Source of the DNA: a virus
Length of the DNA stretch: 64,000 nt
IMG/VR virus record: IMGVR_UViG_3300023215_000707
Location: 1,150 to 65,149 of that record
Strand: one strand, 5' to 3'
Of the stretch, positions 23,379 through 59,146 are shown one piece after another (the stretch's first letter is position 1; each line of letters opens with the position of its first letter). The notes under the pieces are model-generated. The model made no database searches, was not told the origin of the DNA, and worked only from the letters and a program-made list of their open reading frames with translations. The position numbers and the translations under genes are program-made.

Positions 23379-23380
23379 AG

Positions 23381-36818: not shown

Positions 36819-36854
36819 ATGTGGAAAGGGATATTGAAAAATGGAGAGAGATAG
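36819..36854 (+). CDS. 11-aa tag-only mini-ORF MWKGILKNGER
   Basis: GTGTGA RBS; contains the GGAGAG RBS of the next gene. Confidence 0.45.
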   Translation: MWKGILKNGER

Positions 36855-36855
36855 A

Positions 36856-37221
36856 ATGGGTTGGCAAGCCATATTAAAGAAAGAACTTGTTTCTTATGTA
36901 GTTAAAGAGTCTATTTGGAAAGAAGCCTATGGATTATTAGGTGCAAATGATAGAAGAGTTTCAACTGGTTATTTTGAGGCATCCTTTGATGAAATAGAAA
37001 AAGTATTAAATAGAAAACTTACTCCACATGATTTTGCTTTCTTTAGTGCAAACTTTGAAGGAGATGTAGAAAGACATTTAGGACTTGCTAATTATAAACT
37101 TATGCTACAATTATTTACTGATGAAGATTATCAAATAGAATCTTTAGAGGGTGAAGAAGATGATAATATTTTAAGACTTTCCCGTAAAGAATTACAAAAA
37201 GAATTGGAGAGGTTAGAATGA
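36856..37221 (+). CDS. W-x-x-I-L-K-tagged hypothetical protein
   Basis: Starts MGWQAILKK. Confidence 0.65.
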   Translation: MGWQAILKKELVSYVVKESIWKEAYGLLGANDRRVSTGYFEASFDEIEKVLNRKLTPHDFAFFSANFEGDVERHLGLANYKLMLQLFTDEDYQIESLEGEEDDNILRLSRKELQKELERLE

Positions 37222-37489
37222 GTTGGTTTGAAATTCTTAAATTTTATATATTTTATCATTCTACTACTGAAGAAGGATTAAATGCGTTTAACAATGGAGA
37301 ACCTATTAAAGAAGGAACATTCATGTCTAAAATTAAAGAGGGTGCAAGGTTTAGGAGAAGTATTGGGATTGGATTGATTCTGTTAATAGAAGTAAAAAAT
37401 GGCCCGGGAAATATTGGGATGAATGGATAGTAACTACTAAGCCTATTATTGATTATAAAATATTAGAAGTAGAAGATGGGTGGGAATAA
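37218..37489 (+). pseudogene. Tagged ART-fold-like protein interrupted by a -1 frame change
   Basis: MSWFEILK...FYHSTT...FMS; -1 frame gives KKWPGKYWDEWIVTTKPIIDYKILEV...* ending 2 nt before the next ATG. Confidence 0.45.
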
Positions 37490-37491
37490 TT

Positions 37492-37809
37492 ATGTCTTGG
37501 AAAAATATACTAAAAATAGGTAGTTGTTATGAAACTGCCTATTCTTATATTCTGGATAAAGCCACGGCAGGTAATGAAGATTTAATTCTTGTTCATGCAG
37601 ATGTTATTGGAACAGGTGGTAAAGTAATGGGTATGTGTTATGGTCACGCATTTGTTTTAGATGGTGATAATGTTATAGATACAGAAACAAATATAACTAT
37701 ACCTTATGAAGAATATAAACAGTTAGGGAAAATAACAAATGAAAAGAGATATACCTTTATGGAAATGTTACAAGCGGCAGTGAAATCTGGTCATTATGGT
37801 CCGTGGTGA
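37492..37809 (+). CDS. Tagged papain/transglutaminase-like Cys-His-Asp enzyme
   Basis: MSWKNILK; GSCY, GHAFV, VID triad pattern. Confidence 0.6.
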   Translation: MSWKNILKIGSCYETAYSYILDKATAGNEDLILVHADVIGTGGKVMGMCYGHAFVLDGDNVIDTETNITIPYEEYKQLGKITNEKRYTFMEMLQAAVKSGHYGPW

Positions 37810-37815
37810 ATAATT

Positions 37816-37851
37816 ATGTGGAAAAGGATATTGAAAAAAGGAGAAATTTAA
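37816..37851 (+). CDS. 11-aa tag-only mini-ORF MWKRILKKGEI
   Basis: GGTGA RBS; contains the GGAGA RBS of the next gene. Confidence 0.45.
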   Translation: MWKRILKKGEI

Positions 37852-37852
37852 A

Positions 37853-38143
37853 ATGGGTTGGTTTGATGCAACGCAAGAATGGGTAGATAATATTAATTAT
37901 TCACATTATAAAAAGGGTATAGTAGAGATTGTTGATAAAGTTCGCAAATTATTACTTGAGGCTGAAGAATCACCCCATCTTAAAGAAGAGATAAAAAAAG
38001 AAATACTTGAAATAGCATCTAAAAGAGAATTTAAACCATTAACGGAAGAATTGCCACCATTAGAAGAAGGTAGATTAATAGATACATATGCCCTAATACC
38101 AACTAAACATAATAAAGATTGGCGAAAGCAATTACGAAGGTAA
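37853..38143 (+). CDS. Hypothetical protein (partial tag MGWFD)
   Basis: In-operon ORF. Confidence 0.55.
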   Translation: MGWFDATQEWVDNINYSHYKKGIVEIVDKVRKLLLEAEESPHLKEEIKKEILEIASKREFKPLTEELPPLEEGRLIDTYALIPTKHNKDWRKQLRR

Positions 38144-38148
38144 TAATT

Positions 38149-38712
38149 ATGTGGATGAATATTCTTAAAATAAATGAGAGTTCCGAATTTTGGTTATATG
38201 ACCCTCAAATAAGTTCTACTGAAATAATTAATATGATACGCACACCTAAAGAAAAAGTAGTATTTGATATAAAAGATAAGGCTAATGGTTTTCCATTTGA
38301 TATAAACAAATTCACAGATTTAGCATGGGAACAAATAAAACGAGAAAAGCCAAAACACTATAAAAGAGAATGGCGAGAAGCAGAGGTTGGAAAAGAATAT
38401 GCAAGGGAAAAAATTATTCACGCATTTTTAAAGAAATATACGGTTATTGTAATAGGTGCTACGGAAGATGATTGGAGAGAAGTATTACAATTTTTAAATA
38501 TGTATCAAGTAAATCCGTGGAATGAGTTATTATGGGGAACTATATTTGCTTGGCCTTATCCTAAAGATAAATTAAAATTTTCTTCAAATCATGATTGGAT
38601 AATTGGTAAAGTGTATTATGTTAATGAAGATAGAAGAATAGATAGACGTTTATGGCAATCGGCTAGAGTTGGCGATAGTGATGAAAATATGCATTGGTGG
38701 AAAAATGAATAG
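38149..38712 (+). CDS. Tagged hypothetical protein
   Basis: Starts MWMNILK. Confidence 0.65.
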   Translation: MWMNILKINESSEFWLYDPQISSTEIINMIRTPKEKVVFDIKDKANGFPFDINKFTDLAWEQIKREKPKHYKREWREAEVGKEYAREKIIHAFLKKYTVIVIGATEDDWREVLQFLNMYQVNPWNELLWGTIFAWPYPKDKLKFSSNHDWIIGKVYYVNEDRRIDRRLWQSARVGDSDENMHWWKNE

Positions 38713-39367
38713 TTGGAAGGATATTCTCAAAGCCCCAGTATGGGATGTTGAATTGCCAAAAGGTAAATATTTCACTTTAAGTATAAATGAAAAAATTGAT
38801 AGAAGTAAATCTTACAGTAAACATGGTATGATGGGGGCCGCAGGTAAACCTAAAGGTTTATGGTTTAGTTTTACTGATAAGCGTAATTGGATTGATTGGT
38901 TAAAACATAATGAACCAATGTGGGAATATCATTATGAATATCTTATTACTTTTGATATTTCAGGTAATATTCTTAGAATAAAAGATAGAAAAGATATGGA
39001 AAAATTAATGGAAGAATATTTAATTCCTCATGCTGAAAGTGGAATAACTTCAACCCTTGACTGGAATCGTTTATCAAAAGAATATGATGCGGCTATTTTT
39101 GAATATCATGGTGTTGGTTGGCAAGGAGAATGGGATGAAAAAGGACTTCCTACCCCGATGCATCAGCAAAATTGGTTAGATGCTATTAGTGTTGGAAGTG
39201 GGGTTGTTTGGAATTTAGATTCTATTACTGATGAAAAGGTATATGCTCATCGTAAACTAAAGAGAGGACATAGACGAACAAGAGCAAGAAGAAATATCCC
39301 CCGTAAAAAACAGAAAGAGGCTGTAACAATAACAGGTAGAGCGCATGGAGATTGGGTGATAGAATGA
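38705..39367 (+). CDS. Tagged Trp-rich protein of an uncharacterised viral family
   Basis: MNSWKDILKA; KPKGLWFS...W..W, DW..L...YD, W...SG.VWN. Confidence 0.65.
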   Translation: MNSWKDILKAPVWDVELPKGKYFTLSINEKIDRSKSYSKHGMMGAAGKPKGLWFSFTDKRNWIDWLKHNEPMWEYHYEYLITFDISGNILRIKDRKDMEKLMEEYLIPHAESGITSTLDWNRLSKEYDAAIFEYHGVGWQGEWDEKGLPTPMHQQNWLDAISVGSGVVWNLDSITDEKVYAHRKLKRGHRRTRARRNIPRKKQKEAVTITGRAHGDWVIE

Positions 39368-39427
39368 TAGATAGAGATAAAAAGTCATAAGGTTGGATTA
39401 TGTGGGATTGTGCAGTGAGGAATAAAT

Positions 39428-39652
39428 ATGGATTGGGAAACCCAAATTAAGAAGGCAAAAGTGCAATACTCAGGCACTTGCCCAATCTGTAAACAATTCA
39501 TGAGACAAGGGCAGGAATGCCCATTAAAATTACCCCCTCAAGGTGAAGGATTACAGGCTAAAGCCTATTGCCCAATGAGAATAAGCGGAACTACAAAAGA
39601 TAATTTAGAAATAACTCCACCAATTACACAATTTAAACCGAGAGGTGATTAA
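39428..39652 (+). CDS. Tagged Cys-rich small protein
   Basis: MDWETQIKKA; CPIC...CP...YCP. Confidence 0.6.
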   Translation: MDWETQIKKAKVQYSGTCPICKQFMRQGQECPLKLPPQGEGLQAKAYCPMRISGTTKDNLEITPPITQFKPRGD

Positions 39653-39653
39653 A

Positions 39654-39926
39654 ATGAGTTGGGAAAATATACTTAAAGGTGAAAACCCTTCAAGATTTGA
39701 AATGGAAATAATAATTCAAACCCACACAACGCTTTCAGAAAATTGGGGATTATTGGCTTTATTTATAAATGATTTAAAAGAATTAAAAAAATTAATGAAA
39801 ATTAGTCAGGAAGATGCTCAATCAAAATGGGAAGAAATGAAAGGTGAGAGATTAGATATAGAAGGCACTTTTGAAACAGTAAAGAAGATGTATGCATATA
39901 TTGATAGATTATTAGGAGAGGCTTAA
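39654..39926 (+). CDS. Tagged hypothetical protein
   Basis: MSWENILK. Confidence 0.65.
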   Translation: MSWENILKGENPSRFEMEIIIQTHTTLSENWGLLALFINDLKELKKLMKISQEDAQSKWEEMKGERLDIEGTFETVKKMYAYIDRLLGEA

Positions 39927-39927
39927 T

Positions 39928-40173
39928 ATGGGTTGGAAATGTATTTTAAAAGAGGACTTAATGCATGATAATATTAAATCTATAATGGATAACCTATCGG
40001 AAAATCTTCAAAAGACAATGGATTTATATACTAAACTAGACCAAAGTATAGCGCAAGAAAACAAAGAGATGTTACAAGTGGAAATGGGTGATATGGCTCT
40101 TGCTTTATTAGATGTGATTAAAGCAAGAGGGAATCTTCAAAGAGCATTATTTAGACAAGAGGAATTAGCATGA
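39928..40173 (+). CDS. Tagged hypothetical protein
   Basis: MGWKCILK. Confidence 0.65.
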   Translation: MGWKCILKEDLMHDNIKSIMDNLSENLQKTMDLYTKLDQSIAQENKEMLQVEMGDMALALLDVIKARGNLQRALFRQEELA

Positions 40174-40367
40174 AATGGGAAAATATATTAAAAGAAGATG
40201 AAAAGTTAGTTCCCGAATTAAAAGAACTTCTTAAAGAATGGGAAACAAAGCAATATCCTTCCGATAAAGCCCGATGGAAGGAATACCATAATGATATTCA
40301 AACACTTTTAGCGAGAATTATTTCATCAAATATTAAAAGTAGAGGTCCATTTACAAGAGAGGATTAG
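40170..40367 (+). CDS. Tagged hypothetical protein
   Basis: MKWENILK. Confidence 0.65.
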   Translation: MKWENILKEDEKLVPELKELLKEWETKQYPSDKARWKEYHNDIQTLLARIISSNIKSRGPFTRED

Positions 40368-40368
40368 A

Positions 40369-42033
40369 ATGGAAAAACGAATTAAAATAATAGAAGGTAA
40401 ATATAGAGTTGAATCGGAAGGTGGTCGTAATATGGGAGAATATATTAGTGAAGAAAAGGCTAAAGAAAGATTAGGCCAAATTGAACATTTTAAGAAACAA
40501 CCACACCCACTTGAACAGACACAATTTGTTAAACAATATCCTCAATATGTTGATGAATTAAAAAGTGAGATACGATTTCGTAATATCGGTCAAAAACAGG
40601 CTGAAATATTATTGGCTAAAAAATATAATTTGCCAATTTTAGATAAATTGCAACCGAAAAGCCGAGCAACAAGAAATAGTTGGGAAAGTGGAACATGGAA
40701 ATCGGATGATAATTGGTTTGAGATGTTGAAAGTTAGTGGTCCAGTTACTAGCACTACTGCTGGTATTGCTACTAGACCACTTTTCGGTAGGAAGAAGAAG
40801 AAAATAATCCTAAAAGCCCCCGTTAAAAAGACTAGATTTTTTCGCTATAAAACTATGTTATTCAATCAAGAATTTGGAACATTACATGATAAAGTTCAAC
40901 AGGAATATATAGATTGGAAAAAGACATTAGAAAGTAAAGGTCTTGCTGATATTGGTATTACTGGTCGGGGTCATAGGAAGGATGGTTCACAGGGAAAAAA
41001 GACATTATTAGAACACATTGAAAACCATATTGAAGCGGCAATTCAAAGACCGGGCCAATCTCAAAGAAAAGGTGTTAATTTTGTATTAACATATCTTGAT
41101 GAAGTTATTTTACATGAAAATTCTATAATTACACAAAAGGATGAGGATAATATGTTGGCATTCATTGGAGATATTAAGAAATTTTGGGAAACTGATTCTA
41201 ACCCTCGTAATATTGTATTTACACAGCCTCGGTCACTTCGGCGTCGTGGTGGAAAATGGATTGAAGTTGGAAAAGAAACGGTTTACGGGCATTATCGAAC
41301 CCCGATGTATATTGATAAAAGGAAAAAAGTTGATGGAAGTGAAAAGGAACTAGATGCAGTTGATAGTTCTTGGTATGATACTGCACCTGATACATCTAAA
41401 CCACCATTCTATCAAGCGATATTCTCTAATTCATCTTTAGATGAAAGTGTTGGCAAACCGATTACTAATGGTATTTTAGGTATTTTGGAAAGGTTTGAAG
41501 AATCCCTTGGCGATGGACTAGGGAAACCACCAACAATAGTTATTATTGAAGATAATGGGAATATGAAAGATAAATTAGACACCTTGAAATTATTGCCTTC
41601 GCTAAAAGAAGAAATAAAAAAGGTAATGAAAAATACTTCTATTTATCGGGGCAATACTGGTAAAGTGATGTATGGTGGTGCAAATCGTCTTATTTCTCTA
41701 ATAGAGAATATTAGATTCAAAAGTAATGAAACCACTACTAAATATTTGGCTAAGATTGCAGAAATTAATTTAGAGGCAGATGAAACCCCAATAGCATTAG
41801 AATCAATTGATTTATTTTCTATTAAGTTCACTAAGGCAACCATTGATAATTTGATTAATGAATGGGTTAGGGGAGAAGGGCAATTCAAATCACCAAACAA
41901 TAGACCAATGATTCTCGCAACAGATACTACTAGTAAATTGAAGCGTTATTCTTGGTATCAGCAATATCTTGATGCACAGAAAGTTGAAAAGAAAGTTGTT
42001 AAGAAGAGTTGGACTGATATGTTATGGGGTTGA
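40369..42033 (+). CDS. Probable virion protein (554 aa)
   Basis: N-terminal GKY.V.SE.GRN.G.Y...E.A..RL.QIE.FK motif seen in phage head proteins; internal WFEMLK and terminal SWTDML. Confidence 0.6.
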   Translation: MEKRIKIIEGKYRVESEGGRNMGEYISEEKAKERLGQIEHFKKQPHPLEQTQFVKQYPQYVDELKSEIRFRNIGQKQAEILLAKKYNLPILDKLQPKSRATRNSWESGTWKSDDNWFEMLKVSGPVTSTTAGIATRPLFGRKKKKIILKAPVKKTRFFRYKTMLFNQEFGTLHDKVQQEYIDWKKTLESKGLADIGITGRGHRKDGSQGKKTLLEHIENHIEAAIQRPGQSQRKGVNFVLTYLDEVILHENSIITQKDEDNMLAFIGDIKKFWETDSNPRNIVFTQPRSLRRRGGKWIEVGKETVYGHYRTPMYIDKRKKVDGSEKELDAVDSSWYDTAPDTSKPPFYQAIFSNSSLDESVGKPITNGILGILERFEESLGDGLGKPPTIVIIEDNGNMKDKLDTLKLLPSLKEEIKKVMKNTSIYRGNTGKVMYGGANRLISLIENIRFKSNETTTKYLAKIAEINLEADETPIALESIDLFSIKFTKATIDNLINEWVRGEGQFKSPNNRPMILATDTTSKLKRYSWYQQYLDAQKVEKKVVKKSWTDMLWG

Positions 42034-42038
42034 TTAAT

Positions 42039-42359
42039 ATGGATTGGAAAGAGATAATTAAAATAAAAGAAGAAGAAAATATAAGAGAATTTGAGGCTAG
42101 ACAATCAGGTTATCCTGCTGGTGGAGAAATATCTCATGAAGATGCACTAGCCCATGATGCAGATTTAGTAAATAGACCTTCGGGTGTTATTGGTATGGAT
42201 GAATGGGAGCGTTTAGCCGAGTATGTTGATGAACCAAAACATTTTGTTGAGGCTCTAAGAAAATTGGAAGAAATTATAAATTCGGCAGAAATGCGAGGGG
42301 GAGAATCAAAGCATGATTTTATTAAACTTCTAGCGCAAATAGTTGGAAAAGTCAAGTGA
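42039..42359 (+). CDS. Tagged hypothetical protein
   Basis: MDWKEIIK. Confidence 0.65.
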   Translation: MDWKEIIKIKEEENIREFEARQSGYPAGGEISHEDALAHDADLVNRPSGVIGMDEWERLAEYVDEPKHFVEALRKLEEIINSAEMRGGESKHDFIKLLAQIVGKVK

Positions 42360-42364
42360 TTAAT

Positions 42365-42817
42365 ATGGGTTGGGAAGAGATATTGAAAACTTCTACTTTA
42401 GAAGTTAAACTAAAACACATGGTAAAAGATGGAGATTATAGTGATAGTAAAATGGCTTGGGCATATAAAAGAATGTGTAAGGCAGGTAAAGACCATATTA
42501 GTGAAGGTCTTAATGGTATAAATTTAGATAAAGATTTAATGTATAGTGCTATTGGCTATGCTCTTGATGCTTATGCTTATGTAAGATTAGATGATGAAAG
42601 TAGAATACCTGAATTTGATGATGAAAGTAGTCAAATATATAAATTACTTCAAGAAGGTTTAGAAATTTGCAAGAAAGCAAAACAAACTAAATTATATGAA
42701 AAGAGAAGTGAAGCGGATAAGAAAAGACAAGAAAGGACTCGTCGAGACTATCCTAATTGGCGAGAAGATGAAACTGAGGCTGAATATATGGAAAGAACCG
42801 GAGATTTTGTGTGGTGA
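42365..42817 (+). CDS. Tagged hypothetical protein
   Basis: MGWEEILK. Confidence 0.65.
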   Translation: MGWEEILKTSTLEVKLKHMVKDGDYSDSKMAWAYKRMCKAGKDHISEGLNGINLDKDLMYSAIGYALDAYAYVRLDDESRIPEFDDESSQIYKLLQEGLEICKKAKQTKLYEKRSEADKKRQERTRRDYPNWREDETEAEYMERTGDFVW

Positions 42818-42825
42818 TTAATATG

Positions 42826-43485
42826 GCTAAAACTCGCAAACATTGTAAATTGTGCCAAAGTGCCGATAGGGAACAATTAGAGGAACGCCTCTCAACAATT
42901 CAAATTACCCCCGATGATTTAGATAATGAAATGAAATGGCCTAGTGGGTCTTCTGCGAGACACTTAAGAAATCACATGGATGGCGATTATGCCAACCAAT
43001 CTAACCCTAGATGTAATCTTTGTATAAGCCCAAAGAGAATAGAATTAGAATTGGCTATTGTTAATGGAGATATTTCTGCAACTGATATTGCTGGAAAAAT
43101 GAAAATTACCCGCCAACAAGTTCTCAAACATATGGATAAACACCTTAAGCCAATTGTTCAACAGTCTGCCGCTTTGGAAATTGTAAAGAGGGATTTAAGC
43201 GAAATTGATGTTTTAGGTGATAATATTGGAAAATTAGAAGGTAAAATAAATCTTCTTTTTGCAGAAGATGATTTGAACCCTAAATATATAGATAGTTTAA
43301 CTAGACTTGCAAAAGAGATTAGAGAGTCTTTGAAATATCTTTTGGAATTTAAAGGGCAGTTGGTTCACAAAAGACAAGATACCGTTATTATTGCTCAAAT
43401 GAATATTGTTCAAGAAGTATTGGCGCAACAACACCCCGATGTTTGGTTAGATGTTAAGAGTAGAATGAAGGAGAGGTTAGAATGA
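42826..43485 (+). CDS. Duplicated Zn-HTH protein with coiled coil; candidate terminase small subunit
   Basis: Two CxxC...HTH...H-x3-H units then oligomerisation helices. Confidence 0.5.
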   Translation, partial: AKTRKHCKLCQSADREQLEERLSTIQITPDDLDNEMKWPSGSSARHLRNHMDGDYANQSNPRCNLCISPKRIELELAIVNGDISATDIAGKMKITRQQVLKHMDKHLKPIVQQSAALEIVKRDLSEIDVLGDNIGKLEGKINLLFAEDDLNPKYIDSLTRLAKEIRESLKYLLEFKGQLVHKRQDTVIIAQMNIVQEVLAQQHPDVWLDVKSRMKERLE

Positions 43486-43976
43486 GTTGGAAAGATATAT
43501 TGAAAAATTCGTCTATACAAGAACTAAATAAAATTTTAGATTTTATTAAATCTAATAGAAGTCTTCTTACAAGAGAATCTAATCAACCTATTGTTGATGG
43601 AAATTTAACAGAAGAAATTGCTGAAAAAATATTAAATGACCTTAAAGGTGGTAAAAGTTCACCATATAATCAAATAGATACTGATAATGTAAGTTTGCAC
43701 ATTGATGATGGTTTTGATTTAAAAATTGGTAGTGGAGCAGACAATTATTTTTATTCTTTTTATACTCAAGATTATATCACTATGATGAAAAATCCAGAAA
43801 AGGTGTATGCCTTTGTAGTTAAATTTATTGAAATGATAGGAAGAACACCAGAAGAAATGGATTTAGATGAAACTGCTATGTCTTTAAAATACATTAAAGA
43901 AGGTGGTGTTCATTGGGTTCCTAAAGACCCTGATTCTAAACCAAAAAAAGCAACACCCACAGGATATAGACCATAG
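43482..43976 (+). CDS. Tagged hypothetical protein
   Basis: MSWKDILK. Confidence 0.65.
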   Translation: MSWKDILKNSSIQELNKILDFIKSNRSLLTRESNQPIVDGNLTEEIAEKILNDLKGGKSSPYNQIDTDNVSLHIDDGFDLKIGSGADNYFYSFYTQDYITMMKNPEKVYAFVVKFIEMIGRTPEEMDLDETAMSLKYIKEGGVHWVPKDPDSKPKKATPTGYRP

Positions 43977-43987
43977 GAGAGATTAGA

Positions 43988-44332
43988 ATGAGTTGGAAAG
44001 ATATACTGAAAATAATAGATTTTGACGCAAATGAGTTTTATGTTGGAAAATATAAACAAATTGAACAATATGGTGGTCCAGAAGAAGGCGGTTGGTGGTA
44101 TTTTAATTACGACTATTTAGGAGAAAGTGTGGGGCCATTACCAAAGAAAGAAGCAATTGACGCACTTAAAGCGTTAAACAATGACCGAAAACCCCCAAAA
44201 GAATTTTATGAAAATTTACCTGAAGAAGATAAAGATATTGCTAGAGGATTTACCATTTCATCTGGAATTGTATATAGGTTAGAAAATAAAAAGGGCGACC
44301 AACAACATATGAAAAGGGAATATTATGAGTGA
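43988..44332 (+). CDS. Tagged protein with YGGPEEGGWWY motif
   Basis: MSWKDILK; motif recurrent in small phage proteins. Confidence 0.65.
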   Translation: MSWKDILKIIDFDANEFYVGKYKQIEQYGGPEEGGWWYFNYDYLGESVGPLPKKEAIDALKALNNDRKPPKEFYENLPEEDKDIARGFTISSGIVYRLENKKGDQQHMKREYYE

Positions 44333-44705
44333 TTACAATTGGAAAAATATATTAAAAATAGGAACTTGGAATGCTTATATTAGAGATTATGATGGGGGTG
44401 GGTATATGAATATTCTTCAATCAATAGCAGACCCTTCATATGAAGAAGAAGCAGAAGCGATTGAAACGGATTCTCAAGATGAAACATATAAAAGATTTAA
44501 GATGATAATGGCTGTTGTAGGTATGACTGTTCAAGGAGATAAAAATGAAGGAGTAACAAGAAATCTTATTAGGGGGTTTCTACAACAGGGTGGCTCTAAT
44601 GCTAATTATTGGTATGTAATTAGTCAAGTAAAACCTGCTGATGATTATAAACCTGATTTTAACCCACATAGTAGTGAAAGTGTAAGAGATTTAACGGAAG
44701 AATAA
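44325..44705 (+). CDS. Tagged hypothetical protein
   Basis: MSDYNWKNILK. Confidence 0.65.
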   Translation: MSDYNWKNILKIGTWNAYIRDYDGGGYMNILQSIADPSYEEEAEAIETDSQDETYKRFKMIMAVVGMTVQGDKNEGVTRNLIRGFLQQGGSNANYWYVISQVKPADDYKPDFNPHSSESVRDLTEE

Positions 44706-44733
44706 TATTTTTAAGAGAACAGGGGAAATTAAT

Positions 44734-44988
44734 ATGAGTTGGCAAGATATACTTAAAATAGACATTACAATGAATTGGCAAGATGTAATTAAAACATCAT
44801 TGCAAGATTTATTTAATCAATTATCTACTTCTCAAAAACAAGAAGTAAATAATCATATTAAAGCGGGTCTTACTGGTCAAAAGGCTATAGAAATAATTCA
44901 AATGAAATATGGATTAGGTAGTTTTAAGGGAAAATATGAGAATAAACCACAACCACCTGAAAGTGCTTGGAGAGAGAAAACATATTAA
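44734..44988 (+). CDS. Doubly tagged hypothetical protein
   Basis: MSWQDILKIDIT-MNWQDVIK. Confidence 0.65.
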   Translation: MSWQDILKIDITMNWQDVIKTSLQDLFNQLSTSQKQEVNNHIKAGLTGQKAIEIIQMKYGLGSFKGKYENKPQPPESAWREKTY

Positions 44989-45000
44989 GGAGAATATACA

Positions 45001-45183
45001 ATGAGTTGGCAAGATATAATAAAAAGTAAATCTCTTGATGAAGTAGACCAAGATATTGCTATGTATATCAATATATTAAATGGTTATATTCCACAGATTG
45101 AAGAAGTCTATAATGAAGATGATTTGAATAAAATAATTAATTCTTTAGTTAGTATGCTACAATCAACAATGAGGGGAAATTAA
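45001..45183 (+). CDS. Tagged hypothetical protein
   Basis: MSWQDIIKS. Confidence 0.6.
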   Translation: MSWQDIIKSKSLDEVDQDIAMYINILNGYIPQIEEVYNEDDLNKIINSLVSMLQSTMRGN

Positions 45184-45198
45184 TAAGGAGAGATTACA

Positions 45199-45516
45199 AT
45201 GAGTTGGAAAAATATACTTAGAAAAGGAACAGCGACAGCGACTCGTTCTGCTGAATTGTGGGCTATGAATGATTATGAACTTTATCAAGATATTTATAAA
45301 TTTATAAAAGAAAAAGCCCGACAGGGATTAGATAAAGATGAAATTTTTAATGCGGTTGTTAAATTTCTTCCTGAGAGAATGGCGCTTTTGGATGGTTTCA
45401 TGGTAGAATTAACTGAATATGAACCCTCTGATGGAATTAGTGATGTAGATTGGGTTGAAGTTGTAAAAGGCTATGAACCTGAGATTGAAGAAGCGATTAA
45501 ATTTTTTAAGGAATGA
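45199..45516 (+). CDS. Tagged hypothetical protein
   Basis: MSWKNILRK; ELW.MND..LY motif. Confidence 0.65.
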   Translation: MSWKNILRKGTATATRSAELWAMNDYELYQDIYKFIKEKARQGLDKDEIFNAVVKFLPERMALLDGFMVELTEYEPSDGISDVDWVEVVKGYEPEIEEAIKFFKE

Positions 45517-45521
45517 TTACA

Positions 45522-45791
45522 ATGGGTTGGCAAGATATACTGAAAAAAATAATAACTGCTAGAGAATTTCTACAATCTATTCAGGAAAAAACAGGTGGAG
45601 AGATTACAGATAAAATGAGAGGAAGGGGAAAATGGAAAATTGATATGATTCTTTCTCATGATGCTGGATATATAAAAATTATACAAAAGGGCATAAGTGA
45701 ATTTGCGATTAATGTTAATGGGAAAGAATATTTAACTACTTATAATTTAAATAAAATCCTTCCTGAAGTTTTAGAAATGATTGGGAAATGA
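45522..45791 (+). CDS. Tagged hypothetical protein
   Basis: MGWQDILKK. Confidence 0.65.
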   Translation: MGWQDILKKIITAREFLQSIQEKTGGEITDKMRGRGKWKIDMILSHDAGYIKIIQKGISEFAINVNGKEYLTTYNLNKILPEVLEMIGK

Positions 45792-45795
45792 TTTT

Positions 45796-50374: not shown

Positions 50375-50378
50375 TTAT

Positions 50379-50912
50379 GTGGTGAAGGAACTTCCCGATG
50401 GCATTCATCATATGACTATGGATAGTGCCGTTGAATTATGGAATGAAGATAATCCTAATGATTTATATTCAAGAGGGGGAACTTTTCATTCCATTAGTGG
50501 GGATTTAGAAAACTGGTTAATTAGAGTAGTTAATGGAGAAGTCATTGGTCTTTCAGGTTTTACTATTCAGGGTTCTTTTGCTTATGTTGGTGGAAATAAA
50601 GCAAGAGAAGGAACTAAAGGAACTATGGTGGCTATTACTGAAGAAAGAGAAAAATGGATTCAAAAAAGACCTAAAGTTGCTGGTTTTAATGCTAAAAGAG
50701 GTAGTCAAGAAACATGGATGGCGAAATTAAGAGAGTGGGAATGGAATATAAATCCAGACCAATATGAGGGTGTTCCTGAAGAAGTTATTACTACAATGAA
50801 AGAAAAATATGGGGAAAATTGGGGTATTAAAAAGGGAATATTTTGGAAAGATATTCTTTTTAAAGATGAAATATTAATTAGAAAAGATTGGAGATATGAA
50901 ATTTTATTATAA
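50379..50912 (+). CDS. GNAT-like acetyltransferase
   Basis: WLIRVVNGEVIGLSGF...AYVGG..AR..GTM strand pattern; GTG start after GGTGA; C-terminal WKDILFK. Confidence 0.45.
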   Translation: MVKELPDGIHHMTMDSAVELWNEDNPNDLYSRGGTFHSISGDLENWLIRVVNGEVIGLSGFTIQGSFAYVGGNKAREGTKGTMVAITEEREKWIQKRPKVAGFNAKRGSQETWMAKLREWEWNINPDQYEGVPEEVITTMKEKYGENWGIKKGIFWKDILFKDEILIRKDWRYEILL

Positions 50913-50915
50913 GGG

Positions 50916-54141: not shown

Positions 54142-55784
54142 CGGAAAAGCGACGATTTTCAGTTATGAATTTTTTTAGGAAATCTACACCTGTTCCTTTA
54201 GACAGAGAAATTTATCAAATGGGCATTCAAGAACAGCATCATCCTTTAATGATGACTGGGCCAATTATTTACCATATTTCTCAAAGTTCTGTAATTTTGC
54301 GAACTTGTATTACCCAATTAAAGAATGAAATATTTAGAAGAGGATATGAATGGTCGTCTAAATTTGAATTGAAATGTGAAGATTGCGGAAAAGAACATGG
54401 TAATATTGTGGATAAATGTGCTGAATGTAAATCTAATAATTTACGAAAACCTGACCCTGCACAAAAAATATACGCAGATACTTTTCTACATTGTGAATAT
54501 GTAAATGAATCGGAACAAATGTTTATTGATATTCTTAAGGAATTAGAAGATGATTTGAATATCATGGATGACGCATATTTAGTTCTAGTCAAAGAATATT
54601 TCCTTGATGGCAATGGGCAGATTAAGGCGCATAGAATTAAACAATTATATAGGGCTGACCCAGTAACTATGGCTATTGTATGTGATGATGATGGCAATAA
54701 GGGTGGAAATGCTTTTACTTGTATTAATCATAGAGATATAATAGTTACAGAACCTTTTGAGAAATGTGATGAATGTGGATGTGAATTATTCCCTGTTCAT
54801 TATACTAATAGAGCGCATGGAGAAGAACAACATTTCATTAAAGGAGAAGTTCTTCATTTTAGTAAATATTCTCCTAGTAGATTATATGGGTCAAGTCCAA
54901 TCATTACTATGTGGAATCACTTAACAACTCTTATTGCTATGGAGAATTATATTAATCAAGCCTATACCAAAGCAAGAATGCCTAGAGGATTATTGGCTGT
55001 TCAAACTAGAAATATTGAATCTATGCGAACATTTTGGCGAGGTGTTAAAGAAAAGATGGAACAAGATGCCCATTTTATTCCAGTGATGGGTATTGAAGCA
55101 GAAAATGGGAAAGGTTCTGTTGAATGGATTAAATTTATGGATAGTTTAAAAGAAATGGATTATATGGCTGTTAAAGAAGATTTAAGAGATAGGATTTCAG
55201 CATTTTATGGTGTAAGTAAAATTTTCATGGCTGATAGTTCAACTAGTGGTGGATTAAATAATGAAGGTATGCAAATTCTTGTAACTAATCGTGCAGTTGA
55301 AATGGCGCAGAGTGTTTGGAATAAGTATGTATTTACATTTATTGTTAAACAATTTGGAATTACTGATTGGAATATTGTGCTACCACCTTCGGAAGAAGAA
55401 GATGAAATTGCTACAATGAGAAAGCGTGAAATTGAAGTTAATATTGCAGGGCAAATTAAGAATCTTGGATTTGAGGTAGATATGGATGAAGAAGGTAAAT
55501 TCATTTATACAAAACCTGAACCCCAACCCGAAGGAGAAGTTCAAGAAGAGGAAGAAATAGAACGTGACCCTTATGCTGGAACAGATATAGACCAATCACA
55601 ATTAGGGCAAATGATGGAAGCCGGAACTAAACCAACAATGGCCGAAGCAGGGCAACCAGCCAAAGTAAAAGCCGCAAGTCCTAAACCTAAAATGAGCGTA
55701 GGGCCACCTAATCGGAACAAAGGTTTACCAAAAGAAGCCGCAAATAATAATGTAGATAGAAGGACTGAAAGAGGCGGAATTTAA
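54138..55784 (+). CDS. Portal protein with Zn-ribbon insertions
   Basis: EVLHF...LYGSSP, P.GLL, I...YGV; CEDC..CAEC and C..H..CDEC inserts. Confidence 0.88.
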   Translation: MTEKRRFSVMNFFRKSTPVPLDREIYQMGIQEQHHPLMMTGPIIYHISQSSVILRTCITQLKNEIFRRGYEWSSKFELKCEDCGKEHGNIVDKCAECKSNNLRKPDPAQKIYADTFLHCEYVNESEQMFIDILKELEDDLNIMDDAYLVLVKEYFLDGNGQIKAHRIKQLYRADPVTMAIVCDDDGNKGGNAFTCINHRDIIVTEPFEKCDECGCELFPVHYTNRAHGEEQHFIKGEVLHFSKYSPSRLYGSSPIITMWNHLTTLIAMENYINQAYTKARMPRGLLAVQTRNIESMRTFWRGVKEKMEQDAHFIPVMGIEAENGKGSVEWIKFMDSLKEMDYMAVKEDLRDRISAFYGVSKIFMADSSTSGGLNNEGMQILVTNRAVEMAQSVWNKYVFTFIVKQFGITDWNIVLPPSEEEDEIATMRKREIEVNIAGQIKNLGFEVDMDEEGKFIYTKPEPQPEGEVQEEEEIERDPYAGTDIDQSQLGQMMEAGTKPTMAEAGQPAKVKAASPKPKMSVGPPNRNKGLPKEAANNNVDRRTERGGI

Positions 55785-56074
55785 TGAATTGGAAAAATAT
55801 ATTAAAAGAAATTACACCACCACAATTTAATAATATTGAAGAGATGGTTTTATGGATGTTGAATAACAACATTAAGAATGGTCGAGAGATTTCTAATAAA
55901 TGGCATGAAAATGTGGGTCAAAAGACGCAATATAGAGATGTAGAAACGCAGGGTTCGGTAACAGATAATGCAGTTATAATTCTTGAGCCTTTAACTAAAT
56001 ATATTACTAGAGATATGGGATTAAGAGAACAATGGATTAGTCTTTTACAACAAAAAAAGATAATGGGTGATTAA
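55784..56074 (+). CDS. Tagged hypothetical protein
   Basis: MNWKNILK. Confidence 0.65.
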   Translation: MNWKNILKEITPPQFNNIEEMVLWMLNNNIKNGREISNKWHENVGQKTQYRDVETQGSVTDNAVIILEPLTKYITRDMGLREQWISLLQQKKIMGD

Positions 56075-56075
56075 A

Positions 56076-56339
56076 ATGACTTGGGAAAAAATACTTAAAG
56101 AGAAAGTGCCTACATTTGAAGAAACAGGGGCCTTTGATGGGCCTTGGGAAGAGGATGAAAAAGAAACTATAACAATAGATAATGTGAAAGATTATTCACC
56201 AAAAGATATTTCTTCTTTATATTATAGTATTAAATTAATTATGCATAATGCGATGGGAAAGGGAGATAAAGCATTAGATATGAATAGTGCAGTTGAACTA
56301 ATTATTGGACAAGTAGAATCGTATCAAAAGGGGAAATAA
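56076..56339 (+). CDS. Tagged hypothetical protein
   Basis: MTWEKILK. Confidence 0.65.
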   Translation: MTWEKILKEKVPTFEETGAFDGPWEEDEKETITIDNVKDYSPKDISSLYYSIKLIMHNAMGKGDKALDMNSAVELIIGQVESYQKGK

Positions 56340-56340
56340 T

Positions 56341-56562
56341 ATGGTAACAAGAGAAGAAACGACAAAAATGAGAAAAAAACTAATGCAAGCAGAAAGGATT
56401 CTTACTCAGCAAGAAAGAGCGAAGATGGAAAATACTGATTACAGGCCAATGAATTTATCTAAAGAAAAGGATAGACCAGAACCTAAAACAAATGAAATTC
56501 CTAGTGTGATTCATTTGCCTAAACAAAGAAAACCTAAAAAGGAAAATATACCATTTTATTGA
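56341..56562 (+). CDS. Hypothetical protein
   Basis: In-operon ORF. Confidence 0.55.
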   Translation: MVTREETTKMRKKLMQAERILTQQERAKMENTDYRPMNLSKEKDRPEPKTNEIPSVIHLPKQRKPKKENIPFY

Positions 56563-56571
56563 GGGATAGTT

Positions 56572-57936
56572 ATGACTTTACTTAAGGCATATTTAATGGG
56601 AATAGATAACCCCTTTCTTTTGCTTAAGCATTATCTTAATGAAATTAAAAAGCAAAAAATAGGTGATTATGCTACTCAATTAAGGTCTAATTTAGATGAA
56701 TATGAAGAGAAAGTTCATGGTGAAAGATTAGAAAAGTTGAAAGAGGCACTTGATAAATTATTAGAAACTTATCCTGAATTAACTGAATTTCCAAAGGGTG
56801 AAACTGAAAAAACATTTCCTACACTTATTGAAATGAATATACGAAGAAAAAAGATTAACTTAAAAAATAAAATTAAGATAGGAGATAAGCCCCCTGAAAT
56901 AGAAAGGAAAAAGGCACACAAATATAAACAACCACTAACTGAAAAGCAGTGGCAAAAAATAAAAAATGAATGGATTAAAGAAAGAGAAGCAGAACCTAAA
57001 CGTATTCCCGCTGGAAATTTATTTACAGATAGTAAACGATTATCTAGTTTAAGAAAGTTCAAAAAATTATTAGATAACGTAAAAGATAATATTCAAATTT
57101 CTAGAATAAAACGAAGGATAGATAACTTCATTGATATTGAGAATGAAAGACTTAGTGAAGCCAAACTTCGTAATATTACTGCTTATGAAGGTGCATCAAC
57201 AATGGCCCCAACTAGTGTGGGCCTTGCACCAGTTAAAGGGCAAAAGACCAAACTTAAAGCCTTTAAACGTAAATTAGTGGAAATTAGAAGTTCATTAGTT
57301 AAAGATAATGTTCTTGATTATGCAGGTCGATTAATTTATAATGAGGATATTGAATCTTTAGTCTTAGAAATTATTGATAATCCAAAAAATGCACAAATAT
57401 TTGAAAATGTAGAAGTGGGGGCAAAAATAGATATGACGGCAGAACCCGAAATCATAAAACTACATGAAGATATTTACAATTATCTAACGAAGGACATTAC
57501 TTTCCCTGATAAATATGGTAAAGAAATTACAGAATCATTAGGTAAAGCCATAATGTATGTTTATGAACAGAAAACAGGTGTAGTTAGGGCGGAAATTCAA
57601 CATAGGAAGGAAATACTACGAAGATTGCAAGAATTACAAAATATTCCTAGAGAAAATTTATTGGGTAGATTAGGAGAAGAAAGGTATGTTAGTCAATCTA
57701 GAGCAGAAAGACACGCAAGAAGACAAGGCGAACCCGAAGTAGAAGAAGAAGCCGAAGAAGAAGAAGCCGAAGAAGAAAAACCCAAAGTAGAAAAACCATC
57801 TAAAGCCGAAGTTGCTGATAGATTAAATATAATAGAAGAACTACTTAGTGGTAAAAAAGACCCTAAAGGTAAAAAACGTGAATTGGGTAGTTTGAGAGAG
57901 AAAGAGGAAGAGAAAGAGGAAGAGGGGGGTAATTAA
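56572..57936 (+). CDS. Charged helical probable virion protein
   Basis: MTLLKAY start; Glu-rich tail. Confidence 0.6.
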   Translation: MTLLKAYLMGIDNPFLLLKHYLNEIKKQKIGDYATQLRSNLDEYEEKVHGERLEKLKEALDKLLETYPELTEFPKGETEKTFPTLIEMNIRRKKINLKNKIKIGDKPPEIERKKAHKYKQPLTEKQWQKIKNEWIKEREAEPKRIPAGNLFTDSKRLSSLRKFKKLLDNVKDNIQISRIKRRIDNFIDIENERLSEAKLRNITAYEGASTMAPTSVGLAPVKGQKTKLKAFKRKLVEIRSSLVKDNVLDYAGRLIYNEDIESLVLEIIDNPKNAQIFENVEVGAKIDMTAEPEIIKLHEDIYNYLTKDITFPDKYGKEITESLGKAIMYVYEQKTGVVRAEIQHRKEILRRLQELQNIPRENLLGRLGEERYVSQSRAERHARRQGEPEVEEEAEEEEAEEEKPKVEKPSKAEVADRLNIIEELLSGKKDPKGKKRELGSLREKEEEKEEEGGN

Positions 57937-57937
57937 A

Positions 57938-58393
57938 ATGAATTGGCAAAATATACTTAAAAACCAAAGACCCGATTACCCTGATTTAGATGGTGATGGT
58001 AATACTGATGAACCAATGGTTGATGCTCTTGCAACTGTTGAGCAGGTTGAGTCTGTTAAGAAAGAGTCTTTATTAAAAGAAGAGAGTAAAATTCTTAATG
58101 CTCTCGATTCTAAAAAGAAGAAAAGCCTTAAGAAAACATTACAGGCGGCAGAACCAACAGAATATTTCGGTCAAGATTATACTAAGTTAGGAGAGTTAAT
58201 TGATATGATGGAAACATTGGATTTGGTTAAAGATGATTCCAAATTAAAGAAAAAGATGAAATCCATTAATGAGCAAAATGTTGATATGATTGCTACTGCC
58301 AGCAAACTTCGTAAGCAGTATGAACAATTGTATCGTCAAATTAGAAAAATAGTATATCCAAAAAGTGCAGGTAGTTTGAGGGATAAGAAATGA
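57938..58393 (+). CDS. Tagged protein with DxDxDG Ca-binding-like loop
   Basis: MNWQNILK; PDLDGDGNTDEPM. Confidence 0.65.
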   Translation: MNWQNILKNQRPDYPDLDGDGNTDEPMVDALATVEQVESVKKESLLKEESKILNALDSKKKKSLKKTLQAAEPTEYFGQDYTKLGELIDMMETLDLVKDDSKLKKKMKSINEQNVDMIATASKLRKQYEQLYRQIRKIVYPKSAGSLRDKK

Positions 58394-58641
58394 GTTGGAA
58401 AAATGAATTAAAGAAAGATGCAGAAGACGAGATTTGGCAAGAACAAGAAAGACGCCCTAAGCAAATAATGGGTGATAGTGAATTAACCATAAAAATATTA
58501 GCCGAGTTTCTTTTGAAATATAATACAACACCCGATGAGTTAGATAATCTGTTTATAGATAGTCCAGATTTTAAAGAATTACAATCTACATTTGGAAAAT
58601 TTTATCAAGAAAAATTTAAACATTTATTAAGAGATGATTAA
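58390..58641 (+). CDS. Tagged hypothetical protein
   Basis: MSWKNELKK. Confidence 0.6.
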   Translation: MSWKNELKKDAEDEIWQEQERRPKQIMGDSELTIKILAEFLLKYNTTPDELDNLFIDSPDFKELQSTFGKFYQEKFKHLLRDD

Positions 58642-58642
58642 A

Positions 58643-58879
58643 ATGAAAAAAGAAAATAATGAAATGATGGATTTACTGAAAGAATTAGTATCTCGCATAA
58701 AGCAAATAGAGCAGACGGTTTACAATAGTGATAACCTTTTAATGAAATCAGGTATTGTGAAAGTTGAATCTCCTACTCCTATTATCACTAAACATGATAC
58801 TATTCCAGATTCTAACAGTATCGCAAATATGAGTTGGAATGATATTAATACTTTAGTTGGAAAATTAGGTGGTGATTGA
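58643..58879 (+). CDS. Scaffold-like small protein
   Basis: Coiled coil, LMKSG, C-terminal MSWNDINTL matching the protease-scaffold C-terminus. Confidence 0.6.
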   Translation: MKKENNEMMDLLKELVSRIKQIEQTVYNSDNLLMKSGIVKVESPTPIITKHDTIPDSNSIANMSWNDINTLVGKLGGD

Positions 58880-59146
58880 ATAACTTGGGAAAATACAATT
58901 AGAAAAGAAAGTGTAGAATGGAAAGCAGTTAATAATGTATTAATGCTATTATGGAATAATCATCCACCAACATTAATTATGAATATTTTTAATAAAGACC
59001 CTGATAATTTTGAAGAAGAGAATCAATTTGGTTATTATGATAAATTCTTACAGGCAATTTCATCTAGGCCGGATAAAGTTTGGTCTATGTTAGATAAAAA
59101 TAATCAAGAAAGATTAGTAGAACTTGCTATGGAAAAATATGGGTGA
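58880..59146 (+). CDS. Tagged protein with ATA in place of the start codon
   Basis: GGTGGTGA RBS, TGA-ATA-ACT-TGG-GAA; (I)TWENTIRK in frame with the ORF at 58943. Confidence 0.45.
   Translation: MTWENTIRKESVEWKAVNNVLMLLWNNHPPTLIMNIFNKDPDNFEEENQFGYYDKFLQAISSRPDKVWSMLDKNNQERLVELAMEKYG

Follow-up and report, generated by a model that had tools for sequence, protein, structure and literature searches.

The genome of a magrovirus, a virus of ocean archaea, encodes 20 open reading frames (ORFs) of 60-220 aa that share the N-terminal peptide M-x-W-x-x-[IV]-[LI]-K, and we consider the chances roughly even (about 0.5) that this tag is a portable capsid-targeting and processing peptide, acting like the capsid-targeting sequence (CTS) of T4 or the tail of the HK97 protease. 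Magroviruses, which rank with the most abundant archaeal viruses of the surface ocean, carry mostly genes without a known function. Should the tag serve as a capsid address, it would imply a virion-packaged and probably injected role for about one fifth of the genes of this genome, and the same location and role for hundreds of orphan families across magroviruses. These would form a natural set of capsid-targeted cargo larger than any known so far, show the origin of such a signal by copying of the scaffold's own docking peptide, and offer an eight-residue handle to load proteins into HK97-type shells. We found no paper in the literature describing the tag. New here are its likeness to the scaffold C-terminus, to the F-x-I-L-K sequences flanking the protease and to the L-L-K of the major capsid protein (MCP) leader, as well as the organization of the tagged genes as variable cassettes with indel junctions at the Shine-Dalgarno (SD) sequence and ATG.

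Distribution of the tag

The DNA analyzed (the window) comprises 64,000 nt, positions 1,150 to 65,149 of IMG/VR record IMGVR_UViG_3300023215_000707. The general form of the tag is W-x-x-[IV]-[LI]-K, and the usual one M-[STN]-W-[EKQ]-[DEN]-I-L-K, at the extreme N-terminus. Six-frame scans of the window for W-x-x-[IV]-[LI]-[KR], 1-5 residues past an ATG, located tag Trp codons at 36822, 36862, 37224, 37498, 37819, 38152, 38714, 39660, 39934, 40176, 42045, 42371, 43488, 43994, 44340, 44740 (second copy 44776), 45007, 45205, 45528, 55790, 56082 and 57944. All copies lie on the plus strand, together with terminase, portal, prohead protease and MCP, and the replication strand has none. The original prediction of about 27 tagged ORFs holds loosely: the 20 ORFs of at least 60 aa are joined by a variant, MSWKNELK (58390), two 11-codon tag-only mini-ORFs (36819, 37816), one tandem copy, and degenerate starts at 37853 (MGWFDATQ), 39428 (MDWETQIK) and 45781 (MSWQLLLLK). 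Internal copies also occur.

The recurrence of the tag is real and far above chance. A DNA pattern strictly encoding M-x-W-x-x-I-L-K was observed 14 times, against 0.06 expected from shuffles, and TGATTA-NN-ATG-NNN-TGG, which had been noted as recurrent, occurs five times (39646, 42031, 42357, 45514, 56068) against 0.03 expected. A position-specific scoring matrix (PSSM) derived from the tags of relatives, applied at a threshold of 12 bits, matched 22 plus-strand ORFs of the window and nothing in its minus-strand ORFs (13,439 aa), which bears out the claimed absence from the leftward block. Among called genes of at most 230 aa the tag is present in 20 of 51 on the plus strand and 0 of 44 on the minus strand (Fisher p = 9e-7). 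On the capsid-building strand roughly one gene in three is tagged, and in the whole genome about one in five.

Restriction to the plus strand was foreseen correctly, but the description of the tagged region as a head module was imprecise, as 17 tagged ORFs lie in variable islands 5' of the terminase gene and three between portal and second ligase. TerL, the portal and a set of 12 conserved genes beyond the MCP all lack the tag; the 12, none of which has a family match, are probably neck and tail genes. This confinement to one strand and one module, and the absence from the 12 post-MCP genes, argue that the tag is not a general late-gene or translation signal.

As had been claimed, the sequences downstream of the tag are unrelated: each tagged ORF body of this genome stands alone in its own blastp cluster, no Pfam families were found among these ORFs, and the tagged bodies of the relatives form 144 unrelated clusters. 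A motif scan over 83 related sequences, of the kind originally proposed, recovered 421 tagged ORFs on the portal strand and two, both spurious, on the other. Tags also occur on large proteins of 650-869 aa, and in fusion proteins of the relatives internal tags are located at module junctions. Within families W, I/V, L/I and K are conserved and the x positions vary.

Tagged genes and their neighbors

Upstream of the terminase gene, on the plus strand throughout, a tag-only mini-ORF (MWKGILKNGER and stop, 36819..36854), the 3' part of which provides the SD of the next tagged ORF, precedes ORFs of 121 aa (MGWQAILK, 36856..37221), 70 aa (MSWFEILK, 37218..37430; 49 extra nt at 37360 in three metagenomes) and 105 aa (MSWKNILK, 37492..37809). 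The second mini-ORF (MWKRILKKGEI and stop, 37816..37851) is followed by the ORF with the degenerate MGWFDATQ start (37853-38143). Further tagged ORFs encode 187 aa (MWMNILK, 38149..38712), 220 aa (MNSWKDILK, 38705..39367; tag retained in four metagenomic homologues), 90 aa (MSWENILK, 39654..39926), 81 aa (MGWKCILK, 39928..40173) and 65 aa (MKWENILK, 40170..40367). They are followed by a core protein of 554 aa (40369..42033) that contains a tag-like NWFEMLK internally, at residue 116, and whose orthologue in relative G001 begins MNWASLLLK. Tagged ORFs beyond this gene encode 106 aa (MDWKEIIK, 42039..42359), 150 aa (MGWEEILK, 42365..42817), 164 and 114 aa (both MSWKDILK, 43482..43976 and 43988..44332), 126 aa (MSDYNWKNILK, 44325..44705), 84 aa with tandem tags (MSWQDILK, and MNWQDVIK at residue 13; 44734..44988), 60 aa (MSWQDIIK, 45001..45183), 105 aa (MSWKNILR, 45199..45516) and 89 aa (MGWQDILK, 45522..45791). 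The core protein of 704 aa (45781..47895) starts with the variant MSWQLLLLK, and its distant homologue in L001 has the canonical MSWMQILK.

Between portal and second ligase, on the same strand, are tagged ORFs of 96 aa (MNWKNILK, 55784..56074) and 87 aa (MTWEKILK, 56076..56339), a Lys/Glu-rich core protein of 454 aa (56572..57936) with N-terminal TLLK and PFLLLK motifs that are also present in G001, and a tagged core ORF of 151 aa (MNWQNILK, 57938..58393). In most relatives an insert of 8 residues divides the tag of this last ORF into MTW and F-I-L-K. An 83-aa ORF with the variant MSWKNELK (58390..58641) and an 81-aa core protein with a scaffold-type C-terminal motif, M-S-W-N-D-I-N-T-L-V (58634..58879), follow.

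Resemblance to the protease-scaffold and capsid proteins

The suggested link of the tag to head assembly finds support in its likeness to sequences in two head proteins. The prohead protease (62116..63411, plus strand) is fused to a scaffold and ends in M-D-W-N-D-I-N-A-L-I. Its protease domain (Pfam PF04586, Peptidase_S78, residues 27-175) is flanked on both sides by F-D-I-L-K; across 72 orthologues the two flanking sites, F-x-I-[LI]-K and F-D-I-L-K, never vary, and a C-terminal M-D-W-x-D-I, separate from the catalytic domain, is conserved. The tag resembles the conserved form of this C-terminus, M-D-W-S-D-I-H-K. In 49 of 59 distinct protease-scaffold proteins (~400 aa each) the best match of the tag PSSM was the C-terminal M-D-W-[SNA]-D-I-[HN]-[KA], with a median score for the C-terminus of 10.2 bits, compared to 3.4 at best for 18 control proteins. 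Against this resemblance, the scaffold tail in the clade of this genome ends I-N-A-L and not I-H-K.

The I-L-K end of the tag matches the protease-flanking sites as well as the L-L-K of the MCP leader. The window contains the 5' part of the MCP gene (63414..64000, plus strand), encoding a leader of 30 aa whose last residues, L-L-K, precede S. The length of the leader is variable but the terminal L-L-K is invariant, and hydrophobic-x-K is found at the leader end of 45 of 47 MCPs, down to 30% identity. In an AF2 model of the MCP (pLDDT 75) a leader helix and the HK97 fold are joined by a disordered linker that contains this L-L-K, and Foldseek matched the model to Mic1, SU10, T5, HK97 and encapsulin shells (E-values 9e-11 to ~8e-7). 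However, the tag has its aromatic residue at P6 and the protease-flanking sites have theirs at P5; tag and sites are therefore not one identical motif.

We infer docking, cleavage, packaging and injection of the tagged proteins. The short tag, amphipathic with W, I and L on one face, would dock its carrier into the procapsid during head assembly, at a receptor shared with the nearly identical peptide that ends the protease-scaffold. The likeliest receptor would be the HK97-fold MCP, by its inner face or its leader. The S78 prohead protease might then cleave after the tag Lys, as it would likewise cut F-x-I-L-K around its own domain and the L-L-K closing the MCP leader. The cargo would remain in the head and enter the host along with the DNA, and the cargo genes would represent swappable cassettes amid conserved morphogenesis genes. 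Only tentatively do we extend this to a general programmable capsid-loading code of magroviruses, in which scaffold-tail mimicry would pack whatever protein begins with the peptide, Lys trimming would follow and delivery would occur with the DNA, and which would serve an arsenal of injected effectors, about one third of the late-strand genes, rapidly exchanged as start-to-start cassettes.

Several observations count against capsid loading. More than 20 cargo species are many for a head holding ~90 kb. The 17 ORFs 5' of the terminase gene open the rightward block close to its promoter, a place that early or middle genes could also occupy; among RNA runs, none was found to contain the region. 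Many conserved tagged families in the relatives consist of small, strongly basic proteins, a trait that they share with the DNA-associated internal proteins of T4 and that favors capsid loading, but the tagged proteins of this genome are mostly acidic, with a median pI of 5.2, unlike classic internal proteins.

Comparison with known systems

T4 gp21 cuts after Glu, whereas the cut predicted here is after Lys and the protease is of the S78 (HK97) type. As on the T4 proteins IPI-III and Alt, a short N-terminal peptide is common to otherwise unrelated proteins of one virus, and their genes lie beside head genes; by its I-L-K the tag may also finish, as the T4 peptide does, in a motif cut by the prohead protease. 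The tag has no sequence similarity to the T4 consensus. The T4 CTS binds the scaffolding core, while the tag copies the terminal peptide of the scaffold itself; T4 has about six carriers, compared to at least 20 here and more than 140 unrelated families added by the relatives; and the host is an archaeon. Given the S78 protease and the lack of resemblance to the T4 CTS, we regard the tag as an analogue and not a member of the T4-type system. The T4 CTS is an N-terminal propeptide of ~10-20 aa, removed by the prohead protease, and its cargo, like that proposed here, is thought to be injected (PMC7411985).

The HK97 system shares with this virus an S78-family protease (PF04586) with a conserved terminal peptide apart from the catalytic domain, and in both this short peptide is the likely anchor that keeps the protein within a prohead of HK97 fold. 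Duda, Oh and Hendrix reportedly showed in 2013 that gp4, the maturation protease of HK97, has a C-terminal tail that directs proteins into the prohead and can be moved onto foreign ones. In HK97 the peptide is known only on the protease, whereas here a scaffold-tail look-alike is N-terminal on dozens of other proteins, apparently joined to a cleavage site.

The encapsulin peptide consensus is Gly/Ser/Leu-rich and is not known to include Trp. Like the tag, encapsulin cargo-loading peptides are short, terminal and carried by diverse cargo, binding the inner face of an HK97-fold shell (PMC7355545), and the matches of the MCP model include both encapsulin shells and phage capsids. Encapsulin peptides are mostly C-terminal, in contrast to the tag, and encapsulins are cellular compartments without DNA, protease or maturation; TerL, portal and S78 protease rule out such a DNA-free compartment here. 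The first 30 residues of P1 DarB send a reporter protein into the capsid, an N-terminal signal sufficient to load a foreign protein for host delivery (PMC9024508). The P1 signal is known for DarB alone, with no consensus described across unrelated proteins.

Alternative readings

The tag could instead be a docking or recognition peptide for another common partner, such as the group II chaperonin encoded by the virus, its likewise virus-encoded ubiquitin-like conjugation system using the invariant Lys as acceptor, or a host factor, which we consider rather unlikely. The virus and its relatives G3 and G5 do encode a Cpn60/TCP-1 chaperonin, a ThiF E1, a JAB peptidase, a 66-aa protein ending V-G-G-L and a conserved 407-aa partner, and the near-absence of Arg at the tag Lys (245 K vs 6 R) suits an acceptor Lys and a Lys-specific protease equally. 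Another partner would leave unexplained the match to the scaffold C-terminus and that to the Lys sites of MCP and protease; a SUMO-like acidic residue two positions past the tag Lys was looked for and is not conserved, and absence from the post-MCP conserved genes and the replication-strand proteins is not what one would expect of a general signal for folding or modification.

That the tag is a mere propeptide or polyprotein-type cleavage site of the prohead protease, without targeting, seems improbable. The I-L-K does match conserved sites in protease-scaffold and MCP, internal copies lie at fusion-protein junctions, and in the family of the ORF at 57938 the W can drift off while F-I-L-K remains. 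Trimming of eight residues would nevertheless have no obvious purpose unless the peptide acts before the cut, and a binding role is indicated by the W, which is invariant at P6, and by the likeness to the scaffold C-terminus, which is not cleaved. Moreover, prohead proteases of known systems work inside proheads, so that their substrates must reach the prohead anyway.

Selection and cassette exchange

The tag is a peptide-level signal, as judged from codon use: at the conserved Leu all six codons are in use, and 211 unique tags draw on codons much as control Ile-Leu dipeptides do, so that synonymous codons are free at the conserved Ile and Leu and selection acts on the peptide. This speaks strongly against conservation at the DNA level only, which had been raised as a possibility.

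The tagged genes are variable, rapidly exchanged cassettes set between conserved core genes, as would suit the variable cargo set that had been inferred. Close relatives differ by indels of whole cassettes; 12 of 19 begin -6 to +21 nt from a tag ATG and three span tag to tag. Junction microhomologies of 6-14 nt cover SD and ATG, and include ATG-xxx-TGG at two of the seven junctions read out. The idea of a recombination handle has some support from these junctions, but junctions of the same SD/ATG kind occur at untagged gene starts, so that any handle would be gene starts at large and not the tag as such.

It is very unlikely that the tag is a nucleic-acid element (translation-initiation context or recombination handle) or a functionless scar of cassette duplication, its peptide conservation a by-product: these junctions, the use of ATA for the tag Ile in 16 of 20 tags here against 34% genome-wide, the two mini-ORFs and tandem tag, and an SD-like GGTGAT or GGAG ahead of the ATG would fit, but synonymous sites vary as in control dipeptides, internal copies exist without ATG or SD, the motif is kept with changed x positions in relatives with a portal only 66% identical, and small accessory genes on the minus strand are untagged.

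PeSL elements of T4-type phages, consisting of a promoter and stem-loop upstream of genes, are mobile regulatory cassettes. There, and possibly here, a repeated short DNA element at gene starts bounds shuffled small-gene cassettes; unlike PeSL, the repeat in this virus comprises SD, ATG and the first codons, and its conserved part is peptide-constrained.

Genomic setting and distribution of the tag

The virus record is 72.8 kb long and ~78% complete; the window covers 64 kb of it, at a GC content of ~32%. Its gene content is that of the magroviruses, viruses of marine group II archaea. The leftward block (minus strand, 1 to ~36.5 kb) encodes a split PolB, RFC, an ATP-dependent DNA ligase, a Cpn60/TCP-1 chaperonin, a ThiF E1 and a JAB peptidase, and the rightward, plus-strand block encodes TerL (50916-52370), the portal (54138-55784), a second ligase, an S78 prohead protease fused to an acidic scaffold (62116-63411) and, directly after it, the major capsid protein (MCP, from 63414). 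A 619-aa plus-strand ORF with an HNH endonuclease-like region (52282-54141) separates TerL from the portal; as called, its first ~90 nt overlap the 3' end of TerL, and a conserved counterpart is present in the nearest relative. The MCP fold is of the HK97 type (AF2 model, pLDDT 75), with Foldseek matches to Mic1, SU10, T5, HK97 and encapsulin shells. IMG/VR contains 235 relatives of the portal, several of them on contigs of 90-96 kb, as large as the complete relatives compared.

On the minus strand, the ThiF E1 (22029-22592), the Prok-JAB peptidase (21329-21823, scoring just below the Pfam cutoff), a 66-aa protein ending in V-G-G-L (27134-27334) and a conserved 407-aa protein of the same region are all kept in two relatives' genomes (G3 and G5), which makes a virus-encoded ubiquitin-like system at 21329-27334 plausible. 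There is also a weak TFIIB-like match at 24254-25093.

Six-frame scans of the window placed the motif W-x-x-[IV]-[LI]-[KR] within 1-5 residues after an ATG in 23 places, all on the plus strand between 36.8 and 58 kb, and the strict DNA pattern for M-x-W-x-x-I-L-K was observed 14 times against 0.06 expected. The tag, an N-terminal M-x-W-x-x-[IV]-[LI]-K peptide, is carried by 20 ORFs of 60-220 aa. In addition, a variant (MSWKNELK) starts ORF 58390, degenerate forms start at 37853, 39428 and 45781, an internal copy lies inside the 554-aa protein, and one further tagged ORF is found beyond the window, close to the record end. The original prediction that the tag is restricted to rightward genes was borne out: it is present in 20 of 51 small genes on the plus strand and 0 of 44 on the minus strand (p = 9e-7), a bias repeated in two complete relatives. 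Across 83 related sequences, 421 tagged ORFs compare with 2 on the opposite strand, both spurious, and a profile (PSSM) built from relatives' tags only gave no match in 13.4 thousand minus-strand ORF residues. The DNA pattern that had been noted ahead of tagged starts was also seen more often than expected (5 observed, 0.03 expected) and corresponds to an SD-like GTGAT plus spacer. The tagged block recurs nearly unchanged in contigs of several independent marine metagenomes and is therefore no assembly artefact; the runs found to hold it include no RNA run.

Some tagged loci are irregular. Two tag-only mini-ORFs of 11 codons each, 36819-36854 (MWKGILKNGER) and 37816-37851 (MWKRILKKGEI), share ~80% DNA identity by eye, and each stops just ahead of another ATG-GGT-TGG start. 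Such mini-ORFs are rare (3 among 311 distinct tag-started frames from all sources, two of them in this genome); they may be scars left by deletions or may yield free tag peptides. ORF 44734-44988 is the only one in the data set with tandem tags, MSWQDILK and, 12 residues apart, MNWQDVIK (at 44776). Compared with the window, contigs of three independent metagenomes (X3, X4 and X6) are longer by ~328 nt at 36753-36756 and by 49 nt at 37360; as the latter is not a multiple of three and falls inside tagged ORF 37218-37430, this assembly or strain may have a truncated or frameshifted form of that ORF.

Resemblance to the scaffold tail and to lysine sites of head proteins

The MCP leader, the protease-scaffold sites and the tail motif were compared over 80 loci. 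In 72 protease-scaffold orthologues, two invariant sites closely flank the S78 domain: F-x-I-[LI]-K precedes it and F-D-I-L-K follows it. The C-terminus of this protein is conserved as M-D-W-[SNA]-D-I-[HN]-[KA], in register with the tag M-S-W-K-D-I-L-K, and it is the best match to the tag profile in the whole protein for 49 of 59 distinct sequences (median 10.2 bits; best control score 3.4). A motif of this type also ends a conserved 81-aa protein (58634-58879).

HK97-type MCPs are cut at the end of a leader, HK97 itself after a Lys. At the loci compared, the MCP leader begins with a conserved helix; a linker whose length varies comes next, and then an invariant L-L-K with S, A, Q or T after it. 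In the wider MCP family (P0008-P0157, alignment A2; 365 representatives at E-values up to 0.001), a Lys after hydrophobic residues ends the leader in 45 of the 47 MCPs aligned, down to 30% identity. The AF2 model places this Lys in a disordered linker that precedes the HK97 fold. From these sequences, the hydrophobic-x-K looks like a lineage-wide maturation site. The helix reads [IF]-[KR]-T-[IM]-x-[DE]-[LM]-E-x-x-Y-Y-G in ~100 full-length N-termini listed and in the 47 aligned, and after it hydrophobic-x-K precedes [AST]-D-[AD]-P; one family member matches Pfam SU10_MCP.

The tag looks like the terminal peptide of the scaffold joined to the Lys site. In most relatives of ORF 57938, the core tagged 151-aa ORF, it is split into M-T-W, an eight-residue insert and F-I-L-K, which suggests two sub-elements. 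Neither TerL nor the portal carries the tag, nor do the conserved genes downstream of the MCP or any of the replication-strand genes, many small accessory ones included; this distribution fits a head-interior signal. Between portal and ligase, a conserved Lys/Glu-rich 454-aa protein (56572-57936) has N-terminal T-L-L-K and P-F-L-L-L-K, which the nearest relative shares; the protein is a candidate for a second scaffold, or for an internal protein, bearing the same Lys sites.

Possible function of the tag

The most economical reading, to which we give a probability of about one half, is that the tag would dock its carrier in the procapsid at the place where the scaffold tail docks, that the prohead protease would then clip it after the Lys, and that the cargo would be retained inside the head. 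A complex prediction pairing the full-length MCP with residues 1-30 of tagged protein 43988-44332 reached a score of 0.20 (median of 0.38, 0.20 and 0.01; mark 0.34), which weighs neither way.

The HK97 protease tail follows the logic proposed here. So do the capsid-targeting sequence of T4 (PMC7411985), the DarB signal of P1 (PMC9024508) and the encapsulin targeting peptides (PMC7355545). We would class the tag with such capsid-targeting peptides, as a variant form unusual in its scale, its apparent origin as a scaffold-tail copy and its archaeal-virus setting. No description of it was found in the magrovirus literature or in general literature searches. It is absent from loci with distant MCPs (L100-L104, GC 40-48%), from HCTV-1, which has the closest cultured MCP (26% identity), and from the Methanofastidiosa virus vir519; for co-variation of tag and MCP cleavage site among distant MCP relatives, the encoding contigs retrieved span only 1.6-2.1 kb.

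The tag may instead address another common partner, such as the chaperonin or the ubiquitin-like conjugation set. Both are conserved in all relatives checked, and the near-exclusive Lys would suit an acceptor site; this proposal leaves unexplained why the tag matches the scaffold tail and sites in the MCP and protease, and we consider it rather unlikely. That the tag acts purely as a cleavage site, without any part in targeting, is possible though less likely still.

A DNA-level element, or an effect of translation context, is largely excluded by codon usage and by internal copies. All six Leu codons are used at the conserved Leu in the window, and the Ile and Leu codons of 211 unique tags of relatives are used much as in 1,450 control Ile-Leu dipeptides. 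In orthologous families W, I/V, L/I and K are constant and the x positions change, and relatives have internal tags with neither ATG nor SD, where an N-terminal module of 40 residues meets a basic body. Constraint therefore acts on the peptide, which rules against the DNA-only conservation that the original prediction had named as fatal to it. Ile is ATA in 16 of the 20 tags of this genome, possibly a sign that the tag DNA has a recent common origin.

The 40-residue module (MPITKKKDGYYWGSKGPF...YVKK) precedes an internal tag and differing basic bodies in G3 (70541-71095) and at two related loci (L004:5049-5513 and L066:6136-6825), and in other genomes it stands alone as an untagged gene start. 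We read this pattern as evidence that genes fuse and split at tags in a modular way.

Carrier proteins and cassette exchange

The sequences downstream of the tag are unrelated, as had been proposed: 420 tagged ORFs fall into 144 blastp clusters, with each carrier of this genome in a separate cluster. Paralogy of the carrier bodies was rejected by all-against-all blastp. No credible Pfam family was found for the 20 tagged ORFs of the window or the 10 largest tagged proteins of relatives. The ESM Atlas held no match for a 164-aa tagged protein and, for a 220-aa one, only a weak ADP-ribosyltransferase/AcrIF11 lead (0.82-0.84); the AF2 model of the latter, from a 5-sequence alignment, was unusable (pLDDT 35).

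All core genes are common to the nearest complete relative (portal 80% identical): those for the 554-, 224-, 704- and 829-aa proteins, TerL, HNH, portal, ligase, protease, MCP, the 73-, 454-, 151-, 81- and 153-aa proteins, and the conserved genes downstream of the MCP. Of the tagged ORFs, only 57938 has a homologue in that relative, where other tagged ORFs occupy the matching slots between core genes; the tagged genes are therefore variable cassettes of the morphogenesis strand. Several conserved tagged families of relatives are small and very basic; the carriers of this genome are mostly acidic. The tag also occurs on proteins of 650-869 aa, one of them distantly homologous to the 704-aa core protein, whose start in this genome is MSWQLLLLK. 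Right after the tag, the core tagged protein (57938-58393) has an EF-hand-like D-x-D-x-D-G loop (DLDGDGNTDE), and the largest tagged family of relatives (L010:5810-6163) has one as well (DADGDGKISGKDF), which suggests possible Ca-binding cargo.

Between close relatives (flanks at least 88% identical) we found 19 distinct pure indels; in 12 of them the start lies -6 to +21 nt from a tag ATG, and 3 have both ends exactly at tags. The repeats at the junctions, 6-14 nt long, span the SD and the ATG, reaching through ATG-AGT-TGG or ATG-ACT-TGG in 2 of the 7 junctions read out, and untagged gene starts show the same pattern. These sequences support a turnover of cassettes from start to start via microhomology. 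The proposal that the tag DNA acts as a recombination handle has some support from the junctions at tagged starts; untagged starts behave alike, so the handle would be the start region in general rather than the tag itself.

Tag-to-tag contig joints in metagenome run X7 were not used as evidence: their sides are only 21-45 nt, and the joints are probably due to cross-alignment of related viruses. In X3 and X4, low-depth variant contigs (36500-46500), short and weakly supported, join 39927 to 45001 and 43457 to 45186, in each case gene start to gene start, and suggest co-existing strains with different cassette sets.
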